Shown piece by piece: positions 47,111 to 62,260 of a stretch of DNA of 62,339 nucleotides. Numbering within the stretch: the first letter of the stretch is position 1; every line of letters starts with the position of its first letter. A model generated the notes under the pieces. It was not told where the DNA came from, did no database searches, and saw only the letters and a list, made by a program, of their open reading frames with translations. The DNA is from Aliidongia sp. (GTDB taxonomy: Bacteria; Pseudomonadota; Alphaproteobacteria; ATCC43930; CGMCC-115725): positions 1-62,339 of the forward strand of contig JBAVTK010000125.1 of assembly GCA_049696095.1 (NCBI GenBank), given 5' to 3'. A program made the position numbers and the translations under genes.

Positions 47111-48604
47111 ATGATGATGCCTCCGATGCCCCGCCCCGCCTTGGCTCTGCCCCTCGCCGCCCTGCTGGCGGCTTGCGCGGTCGGTCCGGATTTCGCGCCC
47201 CCGAAACCACCCGCAATCACCGGCTATACGGCGGAAAATCTGGCGCCCGAGACCGCCGCAGCCGCGACTCAAGGCGGCGATGCCCAGCATTTTGTCGAGG
47301 ACATGGACGTACCGGGTCAATGGTGGACCCTGTTCCATTCGGAACCGCTGAACGCGCTGATCGAACAATCGCTCAAAGCCAATCCTGAGATCAAGGGGGC
47401 GCAGGCGACCTTGCGGGGCGCGATCGAGAATCTCCGCGCCGAGCAAGGCGCGCTCTTTCCGCAGATTCAGGCATCGTTTACACCGCAACGCTTCAAAGAT
47501 GCCGGTCAAACCTCGCCGACATTGAACGTGCCGCAAAGCTACTTCAATCTTTACACCGCTCAGCTCAGCGTATCCTATCCGCTCGATATCTGGGGCGGCA
47601 CACGCCGCGCCGTCGAATCGGCGCGCGCCCAGGGCGAATCTCAGCGCTATCAACTCGAAGCCACCTACCTGACCTTAACCTCGAACGTCGTCGCCGCCGC
47701 GCTGCAAGAAGCCTCGCTGAAGGACCAGATCGCTGCCACCGAAAAAATAATTCAGATCGAGACCGAAGCGCTGACCTTGTTCAAGAAGCAATTGGCGCTT
47801 GGGCAAGTTGCCGGTGGCGACGTCGCGGCCCAGGAGGCAGCACTAGCCCAAGCCCAAACCGCTTTGCCGCCGCTGCGCAAGCAACTGGCCCAGCAGCGCG
47901 ACCTGCTGGCCGCCCTCGCCGGCCGTTTCCCGAGCGACCAGCCCGAACAGAGTTTCGATCTGGCGACCTTGGCCTTGACGACCGAATTGCCCGTGACACT
48001 TCCGGCGACACTGATCCGCAATCGGCCCGATATCCGCATTGCCGAAGAGGATCTCCACGCCGCCTCGGCACAAATCGGCGTTGCCATCGCGAATATGCTG
48101 CCCAATCTGACGCTGTCGGCGACAAACGGCACGACGGCGACCCAGCTTGGCCAATTATTCATGCCCGGCAATGGCTTCTGGACGCTTGGATCGAGCCTGA
48201 CCCAGACGGTCTTCGACGGTGGAACCTTGCTGGCACGCAAGCGCGCCGCCGATGCGGCGCTCGATCAAGCGATGGCGCAATATGAAAGCACGGTCTTGAC
48301 TGCCTTTCAGAATGTCGCGGACACGCTGCGCGCGCTGCAAGCCGATGCCGATGCGATGAAAGCCAGCCTCGCCGCCGAACAGGCCGCCGGCCGGAGTCTC
48401 GACATCGCCCGACGCCAATTGGCCTTGGGCTCGATCAGCTCTCTCGGTTTGCTGAATGCCGAACAGACCTATCAGCAAGCCGTCATCACCCTGATTCAGG
48501 CGCGCGCCGGTCGCTATGCCGACACAGCCGCCTTGTTTCAGGCCCTCGGCGGCGGTTGGTGGAACCGCCAGGATGATGCGCCCGACCTGCGAAAGGCGAC
48601 TTGA
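47111..48604 (+). CDS. RND efflux outer-membrane lipoprotein, NodT family
   Basis: 497 aa. Lipobox LLAAC, then AVGPDF, followed by two TolC-like repeat halves. Starts 4 nt after the RND gene. Confidence 0.88.
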   Translation: MMMPPMPRPALALPLAALLAACAVGPDFAPPKPPAITGYTAENLAPETAAAATQGGDAQHFVEDMDVPGQWWTLFHSEPLNALIEQSLKANPEIKGAQATLRGAIENLRAEQGALFPQIQASFTPQRFKDAGQTSPTLNVPQSYFNLYTAQLSVSYPLDIWGGTRRAVESARAQGESQRYQLEATYLTLTSNVVAAALQEASLKDQIAATEKIIQIETEALTLFKKQLALGQVAGGDVAAQEAALAQAQTALPPLRKQLAQQRDLLAALAGRFPSDQPEQSFDLATLALTTELPVTLPATLIRNRPDIRIAEEDLHAASAQIGVAIANMLPNLTLSATNGTTATQLGQLFMPGNGFWTLGSSLTQTVFDGGTLLARKRAADAALDQAMAQYESTVLTAFQNVADTLRALQADADAMKASLAAEQAAGRSLDIARRQLALGSISSLGLLNAEQTYQQAVITLIQARAGRYADTAALFQALGGGWWNRQDDAPDLRKAT

Positions 48605-48673
48605 TTCATCGCAGGCCCCCCGTTCGGGGCTTGGCTTTCGCGCCATGGGGCGCGTGCTCGCCTTGCTCGCGAT

Positions 48674-48710
48674 ACCAAATCTCGATGAGCCGCTCTCATC
48701 GAGATTTGGT
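48674..48710. terminator. perfect 16-bp inverted repeat between convergent genes (ACCAAATCTCGATGAG-5 nt-CTCATCGAGATTTGGT)
   Basis: Arms at 48674-48689 and 48695-48710. The structure ends 1 nt before the stop of the minus-strand gene. A smaller GCCCC/GGGGC hairpin lies at ~48612-48632, just after the OMF stop. Confidence 0.5.
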
Positions 48711-48711
48711 G

Positions 48712-49449
48712 TCAGCAACTATTCGGGGTCGGACAAGCTTGGCGCAGGCCAATGACCAACGCCCCCAGCCCGGATTGTGCCGAACGGGTCAGCGCCGCCA
48801 TCGCATCAGTGTTCTGCGCCGGGTTGTCCGTTGGCGCAGCCGCCGGCGTCGCCTGAGCGGCGGCCGGATTGCCGCCATTGGTCGTCGCGAGTTGGGTCAG
48901 CGCCCGGACCACGGTCGATGGCCGCTGTGCCCAGGCCGGTGGGCGCGATCGCTGCACTACCTCGTCGGCCTTGACCGGCGCGGCCAATGTCGGAGGATTG
49001 GCCGCGACGACCCGGTTGTTGGGTCGCAGCACGGCCGGAGTCGGCGTGGCGGTTTCTGGCTGGGGATGAAACAGACCGGTAATCAGCAGCGTCTTCGGCT
49101 GCCGCGCCGCACCCGGACTCGCCTCGGGCTTGAGCAGCACGATATAGCTATAGCCCTTGAGCAGCGTGTCCAGCATGGCCTCTGGGCCGCGATCCTCGGC
49201 CGGCCACGACGGCGCCTCGGTGCCCAGACGGTTCGCCCCGATCACCGCGAAATCGAAATGCTGCGCGACGAGTCCGACCGCATCCCGCAAATTCAGCGCT
49301 GCGGGGTCCGGGCTGGTGCTCGCGACGATCGCCGCCGGCGACACATCGTCCGCCGCCAAGGCAGGCACGCCGACCGTCAGCATGCCGCCGAGCAGGAAAC
49401 CTAAGACCCGTACGAGACCGCTCTGCCGTTTCATGATCGAGTCATCCAT
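48712..49449 (-). CDS. secreted hypothetical protein, Pro/Ala-rich C-terminal half
   Basis: Signal peptide (MDDSI)MKRQSGLVRVLGFLLGGMLTVGVPALA-AD. No family recognised. Start is either 49449 or 49434. Confidence 0.5.
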   Translation of the reverse strand: MDDSIMKRQSGLVRVLGFLLGGMLTVGVPALAADDVSPAAIVASTSPDPAALNLRDAVGLVAQHFDFAVIGANRLGTEAPSWPAEDRGPEAMLDTLLKGYSYIVLLKPEASPGAARQPKTLLITGLFHPQPETATPTPAVLRPNNRVVAANPPTLAAPVKADEVVQRSRPPAWAQRPSTVVRALTQLATTNGGNPAAAQATPAAAPTDNPAQNTDAMAALTRSAQSGLGALVIGLRQACPTPNSC

Positions 49450-49506: not shown

Positions 49507-50619
49507 GTGATTAGCTATCGCCCTCGCGGATACGGCACGTTTGCGCTATCAAAGGCCGCCGCGATTTTCCGCGGCTGCGTAACCGAGGTCGATGGCGTGG
49601 CGCAGATTTTCGCAAAGTTTCGATCGGACCTGATAAAGGGCATCCGCGCGGTCCATGATCGCCTGTCCTGGCATGCGGCCGCATTGCGTTCGCGCACGCC
49701 GCGCATCCGGCGGCGCTGGATCGGCGAACGCAATCTGGCGGACGCAAGAAAAGTCGCCGTGCTTGTGCATTATTCGCGGCGTGGCGGGTTTCTGCGCTAT
49801 TTCCGTTATCTGGTCGAGCAACTCGACCGTTGCGGTTTCACCGTCATCATCGTTTCGAACTCGCCGAAACTGGACCCCGACGGGATCACTTCCGTGCTAC
49901 CGCATTGCGCCTTGGTGCTGCATCGCCGCAATGTGGGTTACGACTTCGGAGCGTGGCGCGATGGGATCATGCAAATTCCCGATCTTGCCGCGCTCGATCA
50001 ATTGCTGATCACCAATGATAGCGTATTTGGCCCGCTCCAAGATCTAAATCAGATTCTAGTGCGGTGCGATCCCGATCAGGCCGATGTCTGGGGCATTACC
50101 GAAAGTTATGATACAAGATTTCACTTACAGAGCTATTTTATGTTATTTAACAATCCAGTTTTATGTTCGAAGAAATTCCAGAAATTCTGGAATACTATGC
50201 GTTATATTGAAAATAAGCGAGTCGTAATATTTCAATACGAAATCGGCCTCAGCCAATTGCTGGTCAAGCAAGGCTTCCGGGTGCGCGCCCTGCATCCCTA
50301 TCGACAATTGGTCGAAGCGGTTCTCGCCCACTCGATTTCGGCGACCGCGTCGGCTGGCCATCCTTTGCGCGATGGCTTTCTGGCCAATCTGCTTCAGAAC
50401 GTCAATGCCGGGAACCCGCTCAACCCGACGCATTATTTCTGGGAGTATCTGGTCACCAACCTCGAATGCCCTTTTATCAAGCGCGATCTGCTGGAAAAGA
50501 ACCCGGTCGGCATACCCTTCCTGGGCAATTGGCGCAACGCAATCGCCGGTGCCAGCAACTATCCGATAGAATTCATTGAGGAGTATTTACAGGAAGCCTC
50601 ACGAAACCGGGTGTTTTAA
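49507..50619 (+). CDS. RgpF-like (rhamnan synthesis protein F family) glycosyltransferase
   Basis: Contains VAVLVHYSRRGGFLRYFRYLVEQL...NVGYDFGAWRDG...ITNDSVFGP...HLQSYFMLF...CPFIKRDLL, matching my recollection of PF05045 motifs. The track start is GTG at 49507. An alternative GTG at 49597 has GAGG 8 nt upstream. Confidence 0.65.
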   Translation: MISYRPRGYGTFALSKAAAIFRGCVTEVDGVAQIFAKFRSDLIKGIRAVHDRLSWHAAALRSRTPRIRRRWIGERNLADARKVAVLVHYSRRGGFLRYFRYLVEQLDRCGFTVIIVSNSPKLDPDGITSVLPHCALVLHRRNVGYDFGAWRDGIMQIPDLAALDQLLITNDSVFGPLQDLNQILVRCDPDQADVWGITESYDTRFHLQSYFMLFNNPVLCSKKFQKFWNTMRYIENKRVVIFQYEIGLSQLLVKQGFRVRALHPYRQLVEAVLAHSISATASAGHPLRDGFLANLLQNVNAGNPLNPTHYFWEYLVTNLECPFIKRDLLEKNPVGIPFLGNWRNAIAGASNYPIEFIEEYLQEASRNRVF

Positions 50620-50708
50620 GCCCTGTCGCGTGAGGCTTTCGTATCGCGGTGGAGTAAAGCCCAACCGGTCGGCCGATGCGGTAATACACCGCTCGCGAGC
50701 CAGGACGG

Positions 50709-50906
50709 TTACAGCATGACGGTCAGCATCGCGCGGCTCTCCGGCGTCCATTGCCGGCGAATACGGGCCGCGACCTCGTCACGGTGGGACGGTTTAGGTG
50801 AGGGCGCGGGATCGGCGTGGAATGTCTTAACAAGATGCTCGATAACCGCTTGGTCCTCAGCCACCTGCCGAACGGGCGCGTCGACCAACCATGTTTGCTC
50901 GCTCAT
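50709..50906 (-). CDS. hypothetical 65-aa protein
   Basis: ATG at 50906 preceded by GGAGGAG with a 3-nt spacer (5 nt if the SD core is read as GGAGG). Product MSEQTWLVDAPVRQVAEDQAVIEHLVKTFH.... No family recognised. Adjacent to AT-rich DNA. Confidence 0.4.
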   Translation of the reverse strand: MSEQTWLVDAPVRQVAEDQAVIEHLVKTFHADPAPSPKPSHRDEVAARIRRQWTPESRAMLTVML

Positions 50907-51231
50907 CGTCTCCTCCGCAACACGAAGATTGACATCGGTGGTGACTGTAGCGCCAGCGGCCGACGATGCCAAGACTCAATCGCGACGCGGTTGTCTCCCA
51001 GAAATTCGTCAAATTATTATAATTACAAGAGCTTAATAGACATTTATATAACCCTAACGAACGAATCGTCGTATATTTGTCACAATAACATTCAGGAATT
51101 TCCGATCCCTACGCCAATATCGGTCTCGCCGACCCTATCGCCAGAAGCAAGACGTTCCATTGTGACTTGCAGTTGATCTGGGGCAAATCGCCGCATACAC
51201 CTGTTCCGCCATCGCCGGGCGGCGGGTTCGG

Positions 51232-51794
51232 CCTGCCTCGCGGGTCAAGAGCCGAATATCTCCAGCATTCCGGATCGACGCTGGTGGCGACGGTATGGCA
51301 GGGTCAGCGGAACCGCATTGCGGTTTTGCAACTGCCGCTCAAAGCGCATTGTAATGCCCGAAGCAGGCAGTGGCCGTGGCGTGGGCCCGGATCATGATCG
51401 TCCACCAGGCGGCGTTGGCGCCGAACCGCTTGAAGCGCGCCTTATCGGCGAATTCCGCGGTGGGAAACGGCAATTGCTCGCGATCACCCAGATCGAGCGG
51501 GCGCAAGGGCTCGCGGATCGCCAGAAAGCGGCAATCCGCCAGCTTCTTGCTGCGCCCGGCCCAATACGGCACGAAGCAGATTTCGGCAAACGCCTGATCG
51601 GTCTGGTATCTCTCACCCTCGACCGTGCGGTAGAGTGGCTGCCACTGGGCCTCGGCGGTCCCCCGCACGGCGTCAGCAAACGGCGCGCGGCACGGGACAA
51701 ATGCCCGTGCTCGATCCCCTTCATAACCTCGACAAATCCAGAACCCCGTTCCAGCCGCCACCCCGTTGGTGTAGATTTTGTTTTCGAAAAACAC
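51232..51794 (-). pseudogene. DDE transposase remnant (IS1380 / DDE_Tnp_1_4-like), truncated and frameshifted
   Basis: 151-aa ORF with ...EICFVPYWAGRSKKLADCRFLAIREPLRPLDL...QLPFPTAEFADKARFKRFGANAAWWTIMIRAH. From memory this resembles the middle and C-terminal parts of IS1380-family transposases, with an internal segment missing. A +1-frame continuation (RFERQLQNRNAVPLTLPYRRHQRR) runs to ~51232. No catalytic N-terminal region is present. Confidence 0.4.
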
Positions 51795-52000
51795 GGTCCA
51801 ACTCTTTGATTTATCGTTGATATGGGGGAACTTCGTTTATTTAGATCCAAAATTTTGGGAGGATCGTGTGGTAAGGCTGTTTCCCGCGCGATGCGAATCG
51901 ATGGAGAAGCACCTGCGTGTGTGCTATGTCGGATTGATCATGGCAACCGCCGTCGCGCTCTTCACCCCCCTGTTGTGTCCATTCGCCGGATGCCGGCTTG

Positions 52001-54415
52001 ATGGCTGAAGCGTCCCATCATGACGCCGAATTGGTCGAAGGCTGGGTCGATGGCTGCAGCCAGGGCATTGTGCGCGGCTGGGCACGGCAGCCCGGTGCCC
52101 CGCGCACACCGGTCACCGTCGAAATTCTGGTCGAGGATATCGTGGTCGGCCGGGGCGTGGCGCGGCTGAGGCGCGCTGATCTGGAATCAGCCGGCAAGGG
52201 CGATTGCGGCTTCGAGATCGCCATCGAGTTCGGCCGGCTTGCACAGCCCAGGGTCACCGCGATCGTGCGCGCACAGGACGGCACGACCTTGACCGGCAGC
52301 CCGGCGGCAATCGATCTAACCGAATTGGCCGCCCGGCATGCGGCCCTCGGCGATCGGCCGCTCGCCACGCTGCCGGTAGCCCTCACCGGCCCGGTCGGCG
52401 GCTATCTCGACGCGTTCGGCCCCGGCGGAATCGCCGGCTGGATTTATGATCCGGTGGCCCCCTCACCGCCTGTCATTTTCGAGATTTGGGAAGCCGGACG
52501 ACGGCTTTCGACCGTCACGGCCGATCGCTGGCGTGTCGATCTGGAAGAGATGCGCCAGGGCGACGGGCGCTGGGGCTTCGACGCCGCACTGCCACCGGGG
52601 CTGTTCGACGGTCGCCCCCACGAAATCGATCTCCGCCTTGCCGCGACCGGCCGTTCGGTCCTGGCCGAACCGCTGCTGTTACATCTGCCGAAATCCGACG
52701 GGCCGGTGCCATTGTCACCGACCCAACCGAAACGCGATGTCGAAGCCGCCGCCAGCACCTGGACCCGCCCGCTCGATCGGCCGGTGGCGACCGTGCCGCT
52801 GTTCACCATCATCGTCAATTTCTATAATATGCAGCGCGAGGCGGCGCGCACCCTGACCTCTCTGTCGCGGGCCTATCAGCGTGGCATCGGCGCGCTCGGC
52901 TATGAGGTTTTGTGCATCGACAATGGCTCCGACCCACCGCTCGAGCCGGATTGGATTGCCGGGTTCGGCCCGGAATTCCGCCTGATCCGGCCACAGCACG
53001 TCCGGCCTTCGCCGTGCGCGGCGATCAATGAGGCGGCACGCGCGGCCAAAGGCCGCTATGTGGCGGTCATGATCGATGGTGCCTATGTCCTGACCCCCGG
53101 CGTGCTGCGCGCGGCGTGGGACGCGATCGACGAGCGGCCGGGCTCGATCGTCGCCTTGCGGCAATGGTTCGTCGGCGGCGATCAGCGCTGGCTCGCCCAG
53201 ATCGGCTATGGCGGGCGGCAGGAAGACATGCTGTTCGACAAGATCGCCTGGCCGAGCGAGGGCTATGATCTGTTCAAGATCGGCTCGCCGGTGCGCGAAA
53301 GCCCGAACAACTGGTTCGACGGCATGATCGAGACCAATTGCCTGTTCCTGCCGGCCGAGCTTTACCGGGCGATCGGCGGGATGCATGAAGGCTTTGCCGT
53401 GGCCGGTGCCGGCTATGGCAATCTCGACCTGTTCAAGCGCGCGGCCGAGGCGGTCGGCGAACCGGTCGTGGCATTGCTGGGCGAAGCGTCGTTCCACCAG
53501 TTCCATGGCGGCACCACGACGAACGTGCCGGACGATGAAATGGCGCGCCGGGTGCGCGGCTATGATCAGGATTATTTCCAGATCGCCGGCAAACCGTTCG
53601 AGGGCGTGCCGCTGACCGATCTGCATCTGCGCGGACAGTTCCGCACCCTGCGCGGCACGGGCAGCCGGCAGCGACCGCTCTCCCCGGCCCGGCTCGGCCT
53701 GACCGAGCGTGTGCGTTCCGGTTCCCTGCCGCTGCATTTCGACGAAGCGGCGGCCGATTATCTGCAATCGGTCTATGTCGAATGCAGCCTGCACCGCACG
53801 ACCCGATGGCAGGGTCACAGCCTGTCGATCGCGCCGGCTGACGTGCTGAATATTCAGGACATTATTCACGGCACACGGCCCGGCCGCATCATCGCGGTCA
53901 ATGCCGAACACGGTCTGCTCATGCTGCTGGAGTCACTGCTGCGTCTGTTGCACCTCGATGGCGCGCGCATCGTCAGTATCGGCGACGCGGCGGCGGACCT
54001 GCCGCCCGGCAGCGAGCGGATCGCGGGCGATCCGCTCGCCTCCGAGGTGCTGGCCGCGACCGAGGCGGCACTCGGTACCGAGGAACGGGTTCTCGTGCTC
54101 TATACGCCGCGCGCGGGCGAGCATTTTCCGATCGAGACGCTCAGGGCCTATGCCAATTTCGTCTCGTGCCGGTCCTATCTGATTTTCATCGGGTCGGTCT
54201 TCGGGCAACCCTGGCTCGGCTATTCCCGGAACTGGTTTCAAAAGGCGATCCGCATTCTGGTGAGCGAGGCGCCGTTCGCCATCGATTTCAGCCGCGAGCA
54301 GCAATTGATCACGACCTGCCCGCAGGGCTATCTGCAACGGATCGGCGGCTTCGTCGCCCCGGCCGAGGATGACGATCTGACCTGGGCCGAAACCGGCAGC
54401 GAGGAGCCGCGATGA
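52001..54415 (+). CDS. multidomain protein: tandem N-terminal repeat domain + GT2 glycosyltransferase + CmcI-like (rhamnosyl O-methyltransferase family) C-terminal domain
   Basis: Two ~70-aa repeats (aa ~11-80 and ~132-205, G[WY].D...GI.GW...P.AP..PV..EI...A.R.R.DLE...GD..GF). GT2 core PLFTIIVNFYNMQREAARTLTSL...EVLCIDNGSDP...RYVAVMIDGAYVL. C-terminus WQGHSLSIAPADVLNIQDIIHGTRPGRIIAVNAEHG...LYTPRAGEHF resembles CmcI-family proteins. ATG at 52001 lies 1 codon inside the track TTG. Confidence 0.65.
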   Translation: MAEASHHDAELVEGWVDGCSQGIVRGWARQPGAPRTPVTVEILVEDIVVGRGVARLRRADLESAGKGDCGFEIAIEFGRLAQPRVTAIVRAQDGTTLTGSPAAIDLTELAARHAALGDRPLATLPVALTGPVGGYLDAFGPGGIAGWIYDPVAPSPPVIFEIWEAGRRLSTVTADRWRVDLEEMRQGDGRWGFDAALPPGLFDGRPHEIDLRLAATGRSVLAEPLLLHLPKSDGPVPLSPTQPKRDVEAAASTWTRPLDRPVATVPLFTIIVNFYNMQREAARTLTSLSRAYQRGIGALGYEVLCIDNGSDPPLEPDWIAGFGPEFRLIRPQHVRPSPCAAINEAARAAKGRYVAVMIDGAYVLTPGVLRAAWDAIDERPGSIVALRQWFVGGDQRWLAQIGYGGRQEDMLFDKIAWPSEGYDLFKIGSPVRESPNNWFDGMIETNCLFLPAELYRAIGGMHEGFAVAGAGYGNLDLFKRAAEAVGEPVVALLGEASFHQFHGGTTTNVPDDEMARRVRGYDQDYFQIAGKPFEGVPLTDLHLRGQFRTLRGTGSRQRPLSPARLGLTERVRSGSLPLHFDEAAADYLQSVYVECSLHRTTRWQGHSLSIAPADVLNIQDIIHGTRPGRIIAVNAEHGLLMLLESLLRLLHLDGARIVSIGDAAADLPPGSERIAGDPLASEVLAATEAALGTEERVLVLYTPRAGEHFPIETLRAYANFVSCRSYLIFIGSVFGQPWLGYSRNWFQKAIRILVSEAPFAIDFSREQQLITTCPQGYLQRIGGFVAPAEDDDLTWAETGSEEPR

Positions 54416-55278
54416 ACCGTTTCTGGACCCGCTTCGTCAAACCGATCGTCGAGACCGCCGCCCCCCGCCGAATGATGGAGATCGGCGCCGATTCCGGCTG
54501 GAATACCCAGCGTCTACTGGATTATTGCCGCGAGACCGGCTGCCATCTCGACATCATCGACCCGGCCCCCCGCCCCGCCTTGCACGAGGTGCTGGCCCGT
54601 TTCGAAACCGAATACACCTGGCACCCGCTGAAAAGCTTGGAGGCGATTCCGCTGATCGATCCGGTCGATCTGGCGCTGATCGATGGCGACCATAATTGGC
54701 ACACCGTCTATGGCGAGCTGCAAGCGATCTTCCGCCGGGCGCGCGAGACCGGCACGCCGCCGCCGATCGTACTGTTTCACGATGTCGCCTGGCCCTATGC
54801 CCGGCGCGACATGTATTACACGCCCGCCGATCTGGCGCCCGGCGAGCGCCACCCCTACGCCTATCGCGGCATGATCCAGGGCCAATCCGAGCTGAGCGAG
54901 GACGGCTTCAACGGCATCCTGGCCAATGCGCTGCATGAAGGCGGCCCGCGCAACGGCGTCTTGACCGCGATCGAGGATTTCCAGGCCGGCCTCGGCACCG
55001 AAATGTCGTTCCACCGCCTGCCCTTCTATAGTGGATTGGGCATTCTGGTGCCGGCCGAGCGCTCGACACCGGCGCTGCGGATCTTGATCGAGAGCTTCTT
55101 TTCGGCCGAATCGCTGCTGGAGACCTGCATCGCGCTGGAGGAAGACGGCATGCGCGCACGAACCGATCTCGCCACCCACCAGATCCGCCTGACCCAGCGG
55201 ACCGAGGCGCTGCGGCGCGCGAAGACCATCATCGACGCGCTGCGTGACGAGGTGAAATCGCTGAAAGCCGCCCGCTGA
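54412..55278 (+). CDS. class I SAM-dependent methyltransferase (Methyltransf_24-like) with C-terminal coiled coil
   Basis: Motif I MMEIGADSGWNT, then LALIDGDHNWHTVYGEL and VLFHDV. ATG overlaps the upstream stop (ATGA), with GAGGAG 5 nt upstream. Confidence 0.65.
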   Translation: MNRFWTRFVKPIVETAAPRRMMEIGADSGWNTQRLLDYCRETGCHLDIIDPAPRPALHEVLARFETEYTWHPLKSLEAIPLIDPVDLALIDGDHNWHTVYGELQAIFRRARETGTPPPIVLFHDVAWPYARRDMYYTPADLAPGERHPYAYRGMIQGQSELSEDGFNGILANALHEGGPRNGVLTAIEDFQAGLGTEMSFHRLPFYSGLGILVPAERSTPALRILIESFFSAESLLETCIALEEDGMRARTDLATHQIRLTQRTEALRRAKTIIDALRDEVKSLKAAR

Positions 55279-55281
55279 CCG

Positions 55282-56349
55282 ATGAGCGAGCGCGGCCGCC
55301 CGCGGATCTATCTGCATATCGGCCGCAACAAGGCCGGCTCGACCAGCTTGCAGGATTTCTTCCTGGAGCGCCGCGCGGTACTGGCCCAGGCCGGCTTGCG
55401 CTATTGCCTGTTCGGTCATCTCAAGGATTCCGTGCCGGGCGTGCCCGGTTTCGCCACCGCGCCCGAACTGACCGCCTACGCCCGCACCGAGGCGGCACCG
55501 GCCTATCTGGTGTCGAACGAGTTCCTGTTCGGCTGGCCGCGCGACTACACCGACAGCATGGTCGCCGGCCTCTCCGGCTGCGATGTCCGGGTCATCGCCT
55601 ATCTGCGGCCCTATGGCGAATGGGTCCAGTCCGCCTATGCCGAGGAAGTGCGGCGCGGCCTGACATGCCTCGATTTCGACCGCTATCTCGACGAGCTGCA
55701 CCCGCAGATTTCCGCCTGGCCCTATCTCGAAGGCTGGGCCGAGGCGCTCGGCTGGGAGCGCATCCGGGTCCGCTCGACCGACCCGCGCGATCTGGCCGGC
55801 GGCGATCTGATCGGCGATTGCCTGACCGCCCTTGGCCTCGATCCTGCACTGGCCGGCGCGGCGCGGCGCAGCAACCGGGCCCCGCCCTGGCCGGTGCTGG
55901 AGATGCTAAGGCGCCTGCGCGAACTGACGGACGAGGCCACGTTCCACCGCGTGGCGCCATCGTTGCAGCTATTGTTGGAAGAAGGCCTGTCCGAGACGAC
56001 GCTGCCGCCGGCTGAGTACCTGACCTCGGAGCAGGCGCATCGGCTGGCCGACCTCTACAACAGCGACCTGCTCCGGCTGGCCGAGCGAACCGGCGTGGCG
56101 CTTCAGCCGGAACGACCGAACGAGCAAATCGGCGCGATGCGGCCGGGCTTCGACCGGATGCCGCCAGCCCTGCTGCGCCAATGGGCCGTGCGCGCCAAGC
56201 TACCCGATTTCCGTCGCTCCCATCCCGAGGCAGCGGCAACGGCCGAGAAGCTTATGGCGAACTGCCGTGCTGCCTTCGGTGCAATTATGCAGAGAATTGG
56301 GCCTGAACCTCCACGGGAAGGCGATGAGATCACGCCACGGGCCAGTTAA
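55282..56349 (+). CDS. sulfotransferase-fold (P-loop) family protein, putative
   Basis: N-terminal IYLHIGRNKAGSTSLQ resembles the PAPS 5'-phosphosulfate-binding loop (PKxGTT). VIAYLRPYGEWVQSAY resembles the 3'-phosphate-binding R....S motif. Starts 3 nt after the previous gene. Confidence 0.45.
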   Translation: MSERGRPRIYLHIGRNKAGSTSLQDFFLERRAVLAQAGLRYCLFGHLKDSVPGVPGFATAPELTAYARTEAAPAYLVSNEFLFGWPRDYTDSMVAGLSGCDVRVIAYLRPYGEWVQSAYAEEVRRGLTCLDFDRYLDELHPQISAWPYLEGWAEALGWERIRVRSTDPRDLAGGDLIGDCLTALGLDPALAGAARRSNRAPPWPVLEMLRRLRELTDEATFHRVAPSLQLLLEEGLSETTLPPAEYLTSEQAHRLADLYNSDLLRLAERTGVALQPERPNEQIGAMRPGFDRMPPALLRQWAVRAKLPDFRRSHPEAAATAEKLMANCRAAFGAIMQRIGPEPPREGDEITPRAS

Positions 56350-56356
56350 ACACCGC

Positions 56357-57424
56357 TCACAACGCAATCGGCATTTGCGGCATCGGAAAGGTCGAGCCGG
56401 CAAAGAACCACGACTCAATCGCCAGCCGCTCGCGCGTCAGGCCCGATCGGGCGCCGGTACGGTGCAGGAACAATTGATCGAACAGCAGCGCGTCCCCGGC
56501 CTTGAAGCGCGGGCTGACGATCGGCGTGGACTGCGCCAGATCCGCGACCACGCCGTCGCCGACGGTCCACCAGGTCGGGGCACCGCGCGTGCCCATTTCG
56601 ACCAATTCGTTGCAGCGCCTGGGATAAAGATCCAGGCCCGGCGCGTCATCACCGCAATCCGACAGCGCCAACCAGCAATTCACCGTGCGGATTTCCGGGC
56701 CGAGGAACGCGCCATCCTGATGCCACGCGGTGCCGGTGGTCGGGGGCACGCGCCGCAAGGTCGATTTCCCGAGCGAGAGATAGGCCCGTTCGCCCAGATA
56801 CTCCTCGATGACGCCGATCACACCATGCGTCTTCAGAAACGCGATGAAATCGGCCAGCGCACGGGGTGAATCCGCCGTCCAGACCGCCCCACAGGCCGCA
56901 CCGAATGCGCGCCCGCCTTCGCTCATTCCGTCGCCTGGCTCCAGCGGATAGGGCGCATACCACGGCGAATTCGGCACCTGCGTTTCATCCTTGCGCGCGG
57001 CTTCGGCCGTGTCGATCGCCTTGTTTACCACCGCGACCAGTTCGGCGGTCTGCGTCGCATCGATCAGGCCGCGCACCAGCAGGCAGCCATGATGCTGGAT
57101 CGCACCGCCCAGGATGCCGGCGGTCAGAGCCGCGGGACCCTGGATTTCCGGGGGGTTTGGCCGGCCGGGGAACGGGTCCGCCGGCCGCGGCGGCCACTCA
57201 GCCAGCCCCGCTTGCGGATCGAACGCGGCATTGCGCCATCGCACCAGGTCGCACAGCGTCGCCAGATCGAGATCGTCCAGATTTTCCGAAGACAGCAGAT
57301 CGATCGCCTCTCGGTATCGCTCAGCCTCCGCCAAGCGCCGCGCCCGAACCGCCACGGGTTCGATCGCCGCCGGTACGCCCGCCAGAAGTCGGCCGACCGG
57401 ATTCAAGAAATTTCTTAGCCCCAT
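56357..57424 (-). CDS. PhyH-family Fe(II)/2-oxoglutarate-dependent dioxygenase
   Basis: 355 aa. HxD in TAWHQDGAF, distal His in LLFDQLFLHRTG, Arg in RLAIESW. Has a ~110-aa N-terminal extension. Confidence 0.6.
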   Translation of the reverse strand: MGLRNFLNPVGRLLAGVPAAIEPVAVRARRLAEAERYREAIDLLSSENLDDLDLATLCDLVRWRNAAFDPQAGLAEWPPRPADPFPGRPNPPEIQGPAALTAGILGGAIQHHGCLLVRGLIDATQTAELVAVVNKAIDTAEAARKDETQVPNSPWYAPYPLEPGDGMSEGGRAFGAACGAVWTADSPRALADFIAFLKTHGVIGVIEEYLGERAYLSLGKSTLRRVPPTTGTAWHQDGAFLGPEIRTVNCWLALSDCGDDAPGLDLYPRRCNELVEMGTRGAPTWWTVGDGVVADLAQSTPIVSPRFKAGDALLFDQLFLHRTGARSGLTRERLAIESWFFAGSTFPMPQMPIAL

Positions 57425-57500
57425 CGCAGCGGTGCCTCACATCGTTCCGGATACGCGCTGTGCTCTCATAGCACGACAATGGCAGGTAGTCCCACCGCCT

Positions 57501-58565
57501 TCAAACAGTCGGATCGAGACGCGCTTCGTCACACAGGATTTCGACCGCCCGCCTCGCTTGTTCGAGAAACGCATCATCGGCCGGGGCGGTCTTGCCGGCC
57601 GCAGCGCAAATGCCCGGTTCGACGAGGTGGTCGAAAAACAACCGCATGACATGATCGACCCCGGCCGGTGTGACCGAGCGCAGATCGTCCGCGAAATAGG
57701 CACCCCGCGCAGCCGGCGCGGTGACGACCTCGTAGGCCGGGAAATAGACCACGCCCGGCCGCCGGGCAATCTCCTCGGCCGCGACCCGCAATACCGCCTT
57801 GGAGAGGGTGGTGGCGGTCCAGACATGGCGCGGCTCGGCCGTCGCCGCGAGCGGCACCGGCGAGACGGTCAGGACGAGGCGAACCTTCGGATTGACTGCG
57901 CGCAACTCGGCGAGGAAGGCGTCGAGATCCGCGATATTATCCTGCACCCCCAGATTCAGCAGGACATGCCGCCCGGCATCGAAGTGCCCGGCGGCGACAC
58001 CGGGGCAGAGCGGGTAGACGGCACCATCCGCCCGGTCGCTCCAGCATTCGGTCAGGCCGAGGGTGAAGACGAAGACATCGATCTGCTCGAACAGGGCGCG
58101 GATCGCGGCCAGATGGCGCTGGCGATCTAGCTCGAATTCCCGGCTTGTGGCGAAGCCCGCGGGCTGGATGGTCGGGCGGAACGGATCGAAGCACCTTCCT
58201 TGCTCGTCGATCCAGACATCGTCCAGCGGCGTGAAGCGCCCATAAGCGCGGCGGAACAATTGCAAGAGCTGGCGCGCGGTATAGATTGAGCCGTAGCGCG
58301 CGCTGAACAGACCATAGCCGAAAGCCGCCGCGGTTTCTGCCGATAGCGTCGGGTGGGCCGGCTCGGTATCGAGATGGCGGAGGCCGGCGGCGCGCAGGCG
58401 CCGCACCAGATGCTGCGCAAAGCAACTGCCGGCGGTGGCGATGACATCGCCCGCGCCAATCCGCCAGGGTGCCTCGACCATCGGATCGATCGCTTCAAGT
58501 GGCGGCTCGACCATCGCCGTGCGCCAGCGCCGATGAGGCGGCGCGTCACGGTAAGGATGGGTCAT
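57501..58565 (-). CDS. GSCFA-domain family protein
   Basis: The eponymous motif is present (IATAGSCFAQHL), followed by TLGLTECW and a C-terminal D..H-type ending (AGVDHVMR). Confidence 0.65.
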   Translation of the reverse strand: MTHPYRDAPPHRRWRTAMVEPPLEAIDPMVEAPWRIGAGDVIATAGSCFAQHLVRRLRAAGLRHLDTEPAHPTLSAETAAAFGYGLFSARYGSIYTARQLLQLFRRAYGRFTPLDDVWIDEQGRCFDPFRPTIQPAGFATSREFELDRQRHLAAIRALFEQIDVFVFTLGLTECWSDRADGAVYPLCPGVAAGHFDAGRHVLLNLGVQDNIADLDAFLAELRAVNPKVRLVLTVSPVPLAATAEPRHVWTATTLSKAVLRVAAEEIARRPGVVYFPAYEVVTAPAARGAYFADDLRSVTPAGVDHVMRLFFDHLVEPGICAAAGKTAPADDAFLEQARRAVEILCDEARLDPTV

Positions 58566-59263
58566 GCCGTACCCCGCAAGGTTTCGAGCACGAGCGCGCC
58601 ATAGGCGGCATTGGCATGCGCGCCATCCTGGTCATAGCAGGCATCGAGAAAGCCTTCGGCGTCCTTGGCCTGCGCCGGTACCGGCCGATAACCAATGCCG
58701 TACGCGGCACAAGCCGCGGCGATCACTTCGCTGTGCAGCCGCCATAATTTGTAGCGCAGCCATTTCGGCGCGATCACCCGCGGCTGGCCGGGAAAAAAGG
58801 CCCACGGGACATGCGGCGCGATCCGCTCGGCATCGGCGACCGGCGGCGGCGGTTCGAGCTGGACCACCGGCGCGGTCGCGACATCGAGGATGCAGGGCAG
58901 ATTCGCCAGATAGGGCAAGGCCATTTCGGCCAGCGTCGCCCGCACCGCCTCGGCCGGGACGAGTTCGCGCCGCTCATCGACCGGCAGATCCGGTTCGGAC
59001 GGCAGCACGAAATCGAACGGGCGCGGATGCTCGACCATGCCCAGCACGGTGTGCGCCGAACCGCCGATCAGCGACAGCACGAGACGCGCCGGCCGGAGCC
59101 GCGCGGCCAGGTCCGGGCGCAGCGCGATCGTCGCGGCGTCGCGCACCCAAGGCTCGCCAGTCTCCCAGAAATTGATCGCATCGAGCGGCACGCCGTCACG
59201 CTCGGCGCCGCGCGCGAGCGCGAAGGCGTGGCTATGGCCGATGCAAACCCACATCTCAATCAC
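58562..59263 (-). CDS. hypothetical protein, SGNH/GDSL-hydrolase-like
   Basis: Block-I-like VCIGHSHA and block-V-like DQDGAHANAAYGALV (DxxH). Its stop overlaps the GSCFA ATG (ATGA). Start is GTG at 59263 (GAGGA 6 nt upstream) or ATG at 59254. Confidence 0.4.
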   Translation of the reverse strand: MIEMWVCIGHSHAFALARGAERDGVPLDAINFWETGEPWVRDAATIALRPDLAARLRPARLVLSLIGGSAHTVLGMVEHPRPFDFVLPSEPDLPVDERRELVPAEAVRATLAEMALPYLANLPCILDVATAPVVQLEPPPPVADAERIAPHVPWAFFPGQPRVIAPKWLRYKLWRLHSEVIAAACAAYGIGYRPVPAQAKDAEGFLDACYDQDGAHANAAYGALVLETLRGTA

Positions 59264-59404
59264 CAGCGGTCCTCATTGTAACAGTCTGCCCGCGTTTCTC
59301 CTCTCCGCCCGATTGGGGCAGAGAGGTCGGGAGAGATGGAGAACACTCTGAAATCACAGGAGAAATCCAGACCTATACCGAGCACGACTTCGACAGCCCC
59401 CGCC

Positions 59405-60166
59405 TCACCCCTCGGCAAACTCGCGATACATCCGTACCAAATCCGGCACTGCCGCCTCGAAGATCTGCTGGCCCTTATCCGGCGAGGCCAGCCCCGGATT
59501 GGAGCCGATGCGGCCATCGGGAAAGCGGCGGCGGAAATCGGCCGGGCCTTGGAAGCGGCCGCTCGGCGCCTTGGGCGGATCGAGCGTCACGCGCTTTATC
59601 GTCTCGGGAAAGGCATACTGCGTCAGCGCCACTTCCGACGCGGTGGCGTGGCTGCCTTCCTGGTCGCCGAACAATTCGTGGGAGACCCGCGCCGCACCGG
59701 GCGATTCCCACCAGCTGACCAGCTTGCAGACGATCTCGCCATGCCCGGCCGGGGCCGTGCCGAGTGCCCCTTCGCAGGCGGCATGGATCTCGTAGAACGC
59801 CGCCTGGATCGTCGCGATGTTGCCGCCATGACCATTCAGGAAGAAAAATCGACGGAAGCCATGCCGGGCGAGCGACATGACGTAATCATGGATCACCTGG
59901 ATCAGCGTCGAGGGCTTGAGCGTCATTGAGCCGGCAAAGCCCATATGATGCACCGCCATGCCGACCGCGATGGTCGGTGCGACCAGCGCCCCGGCCGCTT
60001 CGCCGACCGCCTTGCCCAGGAACTCGGCGCAGATCGCATCGGTCCCAATCAGCCCGTTCGGCCCATGTTGTTCGGTCGAGCCGATCGGCATCAGGATAGC
60101 GGTCGAGCGAGTGAGGTACTCCTCGACCTCGGGCCAGGCGGCGTGGTGCAACAGCATCGGGGGCAT
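59405..60166 (-). CDS. creatininase (creatinine amidohydrolase) family protein
   Basis: C-terminal 253 aa of track ORF 59405..60904: [20 protein letters not shown]...[10 protein letters not shown]...GSHATASE. Start is ATG at 60166 or 60157. The remainder of the track ORF is antisense to acs. Confidence 0.8.
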
Positions 60167-60322
60167 CTCCACAAAAAGTTGCCGGGGAACGCGGACGATC
60201 GGGCCATGCGGTCGTTGACGGCTTGTATCCGCGGCAGAATCTCCCGATATTGCCGCAAACGCAAGAGGTCGATCTCTCGGCCGATCCGGGGGTTGCTGCC
60301 CCCAGCCTCGGAGTTCATCACC

Positions 60323-62260
<1,938 letters not shown>

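Follow-up and report, generated by a model that had tools for sequence, protein, structure and literature searches.

O-antigen synthesis that depends on ATP-binding cassette (ABC) transporters is well understood: the chain is polymerized, capped with methyl or phosphate groups, and exported. To our knowledge, oxidative tailoring and O-acylation by cytoplasmic GSCFA and SGNH proteins lie outside the current picture of these systems. Here, we describe a conserved six-gene block in a contig from Aliidongia sp. (JBAVTK010000125.1, assembly GCA_049696095.1; the whole 62,339-nt stretch analyzed is hereafter called the window). The block is probably the tailoring and termination core of an ABC transporter–dependent (Wzm/Wzt, O-antigen–type) polysaccharide locus, cut in this genome from its polymerase and exporter. 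Among described loci of this type that have methyltransferase terminators, the "TET" operon for Pseudomonas syringae common polysaccharide antigen (CPA) comprises wzm, wzt, a bifunctional glycosyltransferase, plus an O-methyltransferase (PMC7820976). Further comparators are the CPA genes pa5447-pa5459 of P. aeruginosa (PMC3560663) and WbdD of Escherichia coli O9a (PMC3482155).

Part of the block resembles a natural-product pathway. The GSCFA family (PF08885) was listed in 2022 as an SGNH-clan family without known function (PMC9487903). In Pseudomonas entomophila, PipG is a GSCFA protein, PipF is an SGNH-like protein of ~235-240 amino acids (Ser18/Asp208/His211), and PipD is a third component; deleting pipD, pipF, or pipG abolishes O-acetylation of the hydroxyl installed by the dioxygenase PipE (PMC12828459). 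The genes pipF and pipG are adjacent in every case (PMC12828459, 2025).

The conserved block corresponds to window positions 51920-59265 (~7.3 kb), the extent of DNA homology to orthologous loci found by blastn. Its six genes, with the evidence for each assignment, are:

51998-54415, plus strand: GT2+CmcI fusion protein, 805 amino acids (Pfam)
54412-55278, plus strand: Methyltransf_24 S-adenosylmethionine (SAM)–dependent methyltransferase, 288 amino acids (Pfam)
55282-56349, plus strand: sulfotransferase-fold protein, 355 amino acids (predicted structure)
56357-57424, minus strand: PhyH-family Fe(II)/2-oxoglutarate (2OG) dioxygenase, 355 amino acids (Pfam)
57501-58565, minus strand: GSCFA-family protein, PipG homolog, 354 amino acids (Pfam, PipG alignment)
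58562-59263, minus strand: small SGNH-fold protein, PipF-like, 233 amino acids (predicted structure, hhalign)

The nearest carriers of the block belong to Aliidongia (Dongiaceae, Rhodospirillales). A 25-kb Joint Genome Institute (JGI) contig, L065, which represents the nearest relative on a long contig, gives one blastn alignment with the window (7402 nt, 85.7% identity, L065 9919-17314 to window 51920-59265) and nothing outside it. Its fusion protein is 85% identical to that of the window, and its gene junctions and overlaps are identical. To the left of the block, L065 carries a divergent 727–amino acid GT2-GT4 glycosyltransferase and a small methyltransferase; to the right, it carries Wzm (ABC2_membrane) and a Wzt of 247 amino acids (ABC_tran, with no Wzt_C domain). 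The Aliidongia metagenome-assembled genome L002 is 86.3% identical in DNA from window position 51920 on (84% in protein), and a 731–amino acid GT2-GT4 gene lies directly upstream of the block; this contig ends before the right side. A second Aliidongia locus, L009, aligns at ~73% DNA identity over window 52032-59267, again with GT2-GT4 to the left and Wzm and Wzt to the right. In the window, a fragment of an IS1380-type insertion sequence (IS) and a foreign RgpF-like gene stand where GT2-GT4 would be, and creatininase/acs stands where wzm-wzt would be. It is because these relatives flank the block with GT2-GT4 and wzm-wzt, and because homology stops at the block edges, that we read the block as a tailoring and termination core. 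The preliminary description of this DNA, made by eye from the sequence, had proposed a glycan-tailoring island; it is not one built for that purpose, for both nearest relatives (L002 and L065, 84 to 86% identity) carry GT2-GT4 directly upstream of the block, and L065 carries wzm-wzt directly downstream.

Two further features lie to the left of the block:

51339-51794, minus strand: IS1380-type (DDE_Tnp_1_4) transposase fragment, just outside the left edge of the block (full-length relatives)
49507-50619, plus strand: RgpF-like glycosyltransferase gene, outside the conserved cassette (Pfam)

The preliminary description had taken ~10 kb as one unit, of which only the ~7.3 kb at 51920-59265 is conserved; the RgpF-like gene is excluded. 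The remainder of its gene map was reproduced from the sequence, including the open reading frames (ORFs), their coordinates, the two convergent gene sets, the ATGA overlaps, and the 3-nt gap. The stops of the two sets (56349 and 56357) lie 7 nt from each other. On the plus strand, the stop of the fusion gene and the start of the methyltransferase gene share an ATGA overlap at 54412-54415, by which the two genes are translationally coupled; the sulfotransferase-like gene follows after a 3-nt gap (55279-55281, within TGA-ccg-ATG at 55276-55284). On the minus strand, the SGNH-like gene is likewise translationally coupled to the GSCFA gene through an ATGA overlap at 58562-58565. Each of the six ORFs runs its full length and has no frameshift. 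Transmembrane segments and signal peptides are absent from all six proteins, the fusion protein included, which fits the cytoplasmic completion of a glycan.

We confirmed that an efflux operon (membrane fusion protein, resistance-nodulation-division transporter, and outer membrane factor; MFP-RND-OMF) flanks the block on the left and creatininase/acs on the right. The reported absence of exporter, polymerase, and sugar-nucleotide genes holds window-wide: searched by tblastn (E < 1), its whole length gave no match to Wzm, Wzt, RmlA/B, TylF, AT3, or multi-domain glycosyltransferases, and a Pfam survey likewise gave no Wzm or Wzt.

Related loci were collected by a scan of one genome per GTDB species, yielding 60 loci from Aliidongia, Acetobacteraceae, Caulobacteraceae, Parvibaculaceae, Hyphomicrobiales, Methylobacterium, Sphingomonadaceae, Rhodanobacter, Dyella, Luteimonas, and others. 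Twenty-nine species loci with at least 8 kb on either side of the fusion gene formed a well-flanked subset. Within this subset, Methyltransf_24 is present in all 29 loci, always adjoining the fusion gene, PhyH in 27, and GSCFA in 21, as is its SGNH partner; 11 loci have the sulfotransferase-like gene. The RgpF-like gene is missing from all 29 and also from all 60. The preliminary description had suggested looking for co-occurrence of the core genes across genomes, and they are indeed found together elsewhere. Given this co-occurrence, the six genes are a real, recurrent cassette, to which the RgpF-like gene does not belong.

Wzm or Wzt lies within 10 kb in 16 of the 29 well-flanked loci, and a multi-domain glycosyltransferase does so in 22. 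Across all loci, the commonest neighbor families are Wzt (21), GT2-GT4 (20), Wzm (17), and GT2-GT2 (16), followed by a ~500–amino acid Methyltransf_24 protein (14), RmlB (9), TylF (7), AT3 (6), and RmlA (5). In Rhodanobacter ginsengiterrae (L062, 1-22421), a wzm-wzt(Wzt_C) pair stands on each side of the block, and a GT2-GT2 enzyme and a 538–amino acid Methyltransf_24 protein are encoded there as well; this arrangement suggests that two ABC-dependent glycan systems are adjacent. The longer Methyltransf_24 proteins of Rhodanobacter loci (~500-540 amino acids) appear coiled-coil-like at the C terminus by inspection. A gene for a pyridoxal phosphate (PLP) enzyme of Cys/Met metabolism stands directly upstream of the fusion gene in 13 loci, those examined being Rhodanobacter and Dyella.

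The cassette shares several traits with ABC-dependent O-polysaccharide loci. Its orthologs in L065, L009, and L062 sit with wzm-wzt, a bifunctional glycosyltransferase, and SAM methyltransferases; its enzymes are all cytoplasmic; and the window itself has modifying methyltransferases (Methyltransf_24 and CmcI-like). The module recurs across unrelated lineages as an exchangeable unit. Unlike those loci, the window copy has no wzm, wzt, or polymerase, and the Wzt of L065 has no Wzt_C domain. Not described for those loci are the PhyH dioxygenase, the GSCFA/SGNH pair, the divergent sulfotransferase, and the GT2-CmcI fusion with its N-terminal repeats. The preliminary description knew of no described pathway that joins PhyH, GSCFA, a sulfotransferase fold, and a CmcI fusion, and our literature searches likewise found none.

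Family assignments made by eye largely stand. Pfam supports RgpF (in part), GT2, RMNT_CmcI, Methyltransf_24, PhyH, and GSCFA, and predicted folds support the sulfotransferase and SGNH calls; NCBIfam returned no match for any protein of the region.

The fusion protein comprises two N-terminal repeats (~13-105 and 133-230), perhaps with a carbohydrate-binding fold, a GT2 domain (270-403; Pfam E 2.3e-10), and a CmcI-like methyltransferase domain (600-782). The latter spans nearly the whole RMNT_CmcI profile (PF04989, positions 5-206 of 206) at 31.3 bits, above the gathering cut-off of 23.2. It thus resembles CmcI and the rhamnosyl O-methyltransferases, although the score is weak (31 bits) and the domain is joined to GT2 and the repeats. 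The family profile of the fusion protein retrieved no PDB structure of CmcI. At E <= 1e-5, there are 327 relatives; among the 120 listed, nearly all are full length, at 44 to 85% identity, and invariant residues are present across the family. The coupled methyltransferase matches Methyltransf_24 (Pfam E 3.8e-11), and on inspection its C-terminal ~45 residues look coiled-coil-like. Searches of PDB sequences, with single sequences and with profiles, were uninformative for the fusion, the Methyltransf_24 protein, and the RgpF-like protein.

The dioxygenase matches PhyH (PF05721) at E 1.3e-10, scoring 42.4 bits where the cut-off is 22. Across 21 homologs, H235-x-D237, H321, and R333 do not vary, and in a set of 34 they are conserved to at least 95%. 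The ~110–amino acid N-terminal extension is poorly conserved. Because the HxD...H iron triad and the 2OG-binding R333 are invariant, the enzyme is expected to be active. Against PDB sequences, it gave only a weak match to PrhA (E ~0.07-0.9).

The GSCFA protein matches its Pfam family at E 6.8e-49 and is 45% identical to PipG over 317 amino acids (E 5e-76), the Pip sequences being taken from the supplement of PMC12828459. The GSCFAQH motif aligns in both proteins, with C48/H52 corresponding to C47/H51 of PipG. Its small SGNH partner has 212 homologs, none of them named. Within this family, G9, S11, H12, and H216 are invariant, and D213-x-x-H216 can be read in the sequence. Sequence comparison with the PDB gave only a weak match to PtmB (E 0.025). 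The by-eye SGNH call is borne out by the predicted structure, which has a predicted local distance difference test (pLDDT) score of 96 and matches SGNH-fold proteins by Foldseek: the acyltransferase 8zbc (E 4.6e-7), the Mycobacterium smegmatis aryl esterase/acyltransferase 2q0q, PatB, and the OafB SGNH domain 6se1. The family profile aligns with PipF over its full length (hhalign, 94.3% probability, E 1e-7), placing S11 and D213-x-x-H216 on S18 and D208-x-x-H211 of PipF. A Parvibaculaceae locus (L008, 4810-6293, minus strand) has two tandem PipF-like SGNH genes beside one GSCFA gene.

The pair thus parallels the PipE/PipDFG system of late-stage pseudotetraivprolide tailoring. In both, the GSCFA protein is encoded directly after an SGNH protein of ~235 amino acids, in the same gene order, and in both the pair is accompanied by an Fe(II)/2OG dioxygenase. 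The contexts differ: loci of the window type hold glycosyltransferases and Wzm/Wzt, whereas the Pip genes belong to a nonribosomal peptide synthetase/polyketide synthase (NRPS/PKS) pathway. The GSCFA family, earlier without known function, is hereby linked to glycan loci.

The sulfotransferase-like protein belongs to a family of 77 homologs, all annotated "hypothetical," and has no Pfam or NCBIfam match at E 0.01; PDB sequence searches (single and profile) gave no sulfotransferase match. An AlphaFold2 model built with 43 homologs has a pLDDT of 93.8. Its top Foldseek matches in the PDB are 3rnl (E 3.4e-5), 1nst (the NDST1 sulfotransferase domain), 1t8t (3-OST-3), and SULT2A1, at a probability of 1.0 but with TM-scores of only 0.4-0.56. 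The model and these matches support the sulfotransferase fold first assigned by eye. Residues G19, S20, E80, and R109 are invariant, and K17, T21, and S117 are at least 90% conserved. By inspection, K17-x-G19-S20-T21 fits a loop like that binding the 5'-phosphosulfate (5'-PSB), R109/S117 a pair like that binding the 3'-phosphate (3'-PB), and E80 a catalytic base. By Foldseek, the protein shares its fold with carbohydrate sulfotransferases that depend on 3'-phosphoadenosine-5'-phosphosulfate (PAPS), namely NDST, 3-OST, and the bacterial 3rnl. Its K-x-G-S-T loop, its R...S pair at 5'-PSB/3'-PB spacing, and its invariant Glu may be further common features. It differs in carrying ~150 extra C-terminal helical residues and in belonging to a tiny family (~77 sequences) without a curated profile match. 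These proteins define a small new family with a sulfotransferase fold.

Domain fusions tie these proteins together. Counting uninterrupted ORFs in related genomes, we find a sulfotransferase-like+PhyH fusion on a complete Acetobacteraceae chromosome (L039 12983-15115, minus strand, 710 amino acids), two PipF-like SGNH+PhyH fusions whose halves are connected through a Pro/Ala/Ser-rich linker (L037 13078-15189, minus strand, 703 amino acids; L040 13122-15236, minus strand, 704 amino acids), and a PipF-like SGNH+GSCFA fusion (L053 15330-17243, minus strand, 637 amino acids). We did not count a seeming GSCFA fusion in L041, whose ORF we take to be over-extended, since blastp matched the GSCFA part only. 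On account of the fusions, we propose that PhyH acts together with the acyl-transfer pair and the sulfotransferase, and they suggest hydroxylation followed by O-acylation or O-sulfation.

From homology, synteny, predicted folds, catalytic residues, co-occurrence, and fusions, we infer the chemical steps and the acceptor as follows. In the ancestral locus, the bifunctional GT2-GT4 enzyme would polymerize a lipid-linked glycan on the cytoplasmic side of the membrane, and the six soluble enzymes of the block would then add and decorate residues. The GT2 domain of the fusion would add a sugar residue, and its CmcI-like domain and the coupled Methyltransf_24 protein would O-methylate. The PhyH dioxygenase would hydroxylate a C-H position, the PipF-like SGNH and PipG-like GSCFA proteins would O-acylate (probably O-acetylate), and the sulfotransferase-fold protein would O-sulfate using PAPS. 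By analogy with PipE/PipDFG, and in view of the fusions, acylation or sulfation may target the hydroxyl made by PhyH. Wzm/Wzt would export the finished chain.

A bolder proposal, which we regard as possible but unlikely, is that PhyH, the SGNH/GSCFA pair, and the new sulfotransferase family make up a route, not recognized before, by which bacterial surface polysaccharides are tailored oxidatively. Hydroxylation of a C-H position, such as one on a deoxy or O-methyl sugar, would be followed by O-acylation or O-sulfation of the new hydroxyl. If so, this would be the first carbohydrate function for the GSCFA family, and a hydroxylate-then-acylate module would be common to natural-product and glycan pathways. 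In that case, the copy without an exporter in this window might represent a variant working in trans or on an intracellular glycan. Dozens of alpha- and gammaproteobacterial species from soil and peat carry the cassette (Aliidongia, Acetobacteraceae, Caulobacter, Rhodanobacter, Dyella, and Luteimonas). Several are culturable, such as Rhodanobacter ginsengiterrae, R. glycinis, Dyella psychrodurans, D. solisilvae, and Caulobacter sp. S45, so the predictions are testable. For the window itself, the value is mainly corrective: the "island" is probably a displaced part of a larger, recognizable type of locus.

An independent sequencing run yielded a Logan contig that is 99.99% identical over 51729-59125 and ends inside the IS fragment. 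The window keeps 78 nt of the native region upstream of the fusion gene; in place of the native upstream region of the minus-strand operon, which wzm shares in L065, it has the 3' end of the creatininase gene. As to features of genomic islands, the IS fragment is present and the RgpF-like gene is atypical in composition, and GC and GC at third codon positions (GC3) of the block match those of flanking genes. Direct or inverted repeats on both sides of the block were sought and not found, all pairs detected looking like chance matches, and no tRNA adjoins it. The creatininase-acs pair is divergent and is conserved in metagenome relatives L066-L086, as found by searching the creatininase protein against metagenome contigs. 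The best explanation is that a rearrangement separated the block from its polymerase and exporter, with the IS1380-type fragment marking the left edge. Since creatininase-acs is kept in relatives but the RND operon is never adjacent to it there, an insertion and a rearrangement look alike at this site. Either the block works in trans with glycan genes in another part of the genome, or it is a module that was orphaned recently. The preliminary description had it probably decorating a glycan or other acceptor made elsewhere, and such action in trans may take place; in relatives, the block lies beside a polymerase and an exporter.

Several observations weigh against a tailoring and termination core. 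Exporter, polymerase, initiating enzyme, and sugar-nucleotide genes are all absent from the 62-kb window, so the role of the block in this genome is putative. In 13 of the 29 well-flanked loci, there is no Wzm/Wzt within 10 kb, which makes the link to ABC export frequent rather than obligatory. The preliminary description had also considered that relatives might always hold these genes inside a standard locus, making this copy a fragment of one; that is largely true of this lineage, but those 13 loci rule out "always." The dN/dS values of the six genes against L065, 0.10-0.34 (dS 0.31-0.46), speak for the core reading but for the most part record selection that preceded the rearrangement. Among the metagenome relatives, none has the RND operon beside creatininase-acs; neither an empty site nor flanking repeats were found from which to reconstruct the event. 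The CmcI-like domain reads AVNAEHG at 632-639, a stretch in which only G639 is conserved (at least 90%). On inspection, this glycine-rich SAM loop looks noncanonical, and the domain may be inactive. The parallel with Pip is incomplete too: tblastn found no PipD homolog in the window or in the 60 loci, so that PipD is without a counterpart, and the dioxygenase is of the PhyH type, whereas PipE is of the TauD/TfdA type. PipD as the N-terminal domain of PhyH was rejected (hhalign of PipD against the PhyH family, 0.2% probability). Sugars already bear hydroxyls, which leaves the need for a hydroxylase unexplained, and we know of no product structure for any organism that carries the cassette.

Other explanations appear less likely. 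The block might be an orphan relic, recently cut off, contributing to no product, and intact only for lack of time to decay. Both native neighbors are gone, the IS fragment abuts the block, the upstream region of the minus-strand operon has been replaced, and the window holds no glycan gene elsewhere. Yet all six ORFs are full length without frameshift, a second copy that is 99.99% identical exists in the independent run, and the native sequence upstream of the fusion gene is retained over 78 nt. The 13 species that keep the cassette without an adjacent exporter show, moreover, that separation is compatible with function. We therefore judge a relic to be rather unlikely. Less likely again is that the cassette tailors something other than a surface polysaccharide, for instance a small secondary metabolite, or else a glycolipid or a polymethylated polysaccharide inside the cell. 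Such a role would resemble that of PipE/PipFG in their natural-product pathway, and Wzm/Wzt export would be incidental. The sole experimentally studied PipF/PipG pair does act on a peptide-polyketide, the same 13 loci have no nearby exporter, and all six enzymes are cytoplasmic. However, the gene maps inspected contain no NRPS or PKS gene, the core fusion protein itself holds a GT2 domain, and the neighbors seen most often are glycosyltransferases, Wzm/Wzt (of which many carry Wzt_C, a glycan-binding domain), RmlA/B, and sugar methyltransferases of the TylF type.

We give still less credence to a self-contained, horizontally acquired decorating island of ~10 kb that includes the RgpF-like gene and modifies an acceptor made elsewhere. 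The lack of exporter, polymerase, and rml genes, which some related loci also show for the exporter, would fit such an island, as would the IS fragment and the low-GC DNA. But the RgpF-like gene is absent from all 60 related loci and differs in composition from the block, which in turn matches the flanking chromosomal genes in GC and GC3; there are no flanking repeats and no tRNA site; and the nearest relatives hold the block within a polymerase/exporter locus, with homology ending at its edges. A displaced tailoring and termination core of an ABC-dependent locus remains, in our assessment, the probable reading.

The RgpF-like gene is intact but matches Pfam RgpF (PF05045, E 2.3e-30) over profile positions 1-167 of 503 only. 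Its GC is 0.538 and its GC3 0.63, compared with 0.65-0.685 and 0.78-0.83 in the block (about 0.66 and 0.79), similar values in the flanking chromosomal genes, and a GC of 0.618 for the window. It probably represents a lone glycosyltransferase gene that was acquired separately. The idea that it stands in for the lost polymerase was rejected as unsupported, since no related locus has it together with the block and its base composition is foreign. The core of the gene (50040-50260) is much more AT-rich than the gene as a whole. The preliminary description had noted AT-rich DNA at 50.0-51.9 kb. Such DNA occurs at ~49.75-50.5 kb, inside the RgpF-like gene (GC ~0.48), and at ~50.98-51.12 kb, but it is not continuous, the stretch at 51.25-51.75 kb having 63.6% GC. 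The very AT-rich intergenic DNA between the RgpF-like gene and the transposase fragment (50980-51120) holds the only two sigma-70-like promoter matches of the region. A scan for promoters and terminators was uninformative, because its counts equaled those of shuffled sequence.

The ORF at 51339-51794 has no Pfam or NCBIfam match of its own, and tblastn against plasmids returned nothing. Among its 196 relatives, however, the full-length ones (~500 amino acids) match PF13701 (IS1380-type DDE), and the ORF covers only residues ~280-375 of these. It is, by this comparison, a degraded internal fragment of a transposase, as the preliminary description had supposed of this remnant.

Between the efflux operon and the RgpF-like gene lies a gene for a 245–amino acid Ala/Pro-rich protein (48712-49449, minus strand) with no Pfam or NCBIfam family; its hydrophobic N-terminal segment may be a signal peptide. 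An inverted repeat at 48671-48713 (19 nt, 95% complementary, 5-nt loop), between the convergent OMF gene (ending at 48604) and this secreted-protein gene (ending at 48712), is probably a bidirectional terminator. The remainder of the 62-kb window is housekeeping in content: the nuo operon, three tRNAs, lon, clpXP, tig, kdpABC, a porin, and a two-component system. To the right of the block, the mechanically called ORFs at 59405-60904 (minus strand) and 59945-62260 (plus strand) overlap each other and are both over-extended. In the former, the creatininase domain spans residues 254-492 only, so the creatininase start is likely near 60166; in the latter, the Acs N-terminal domain starts at residue 150.

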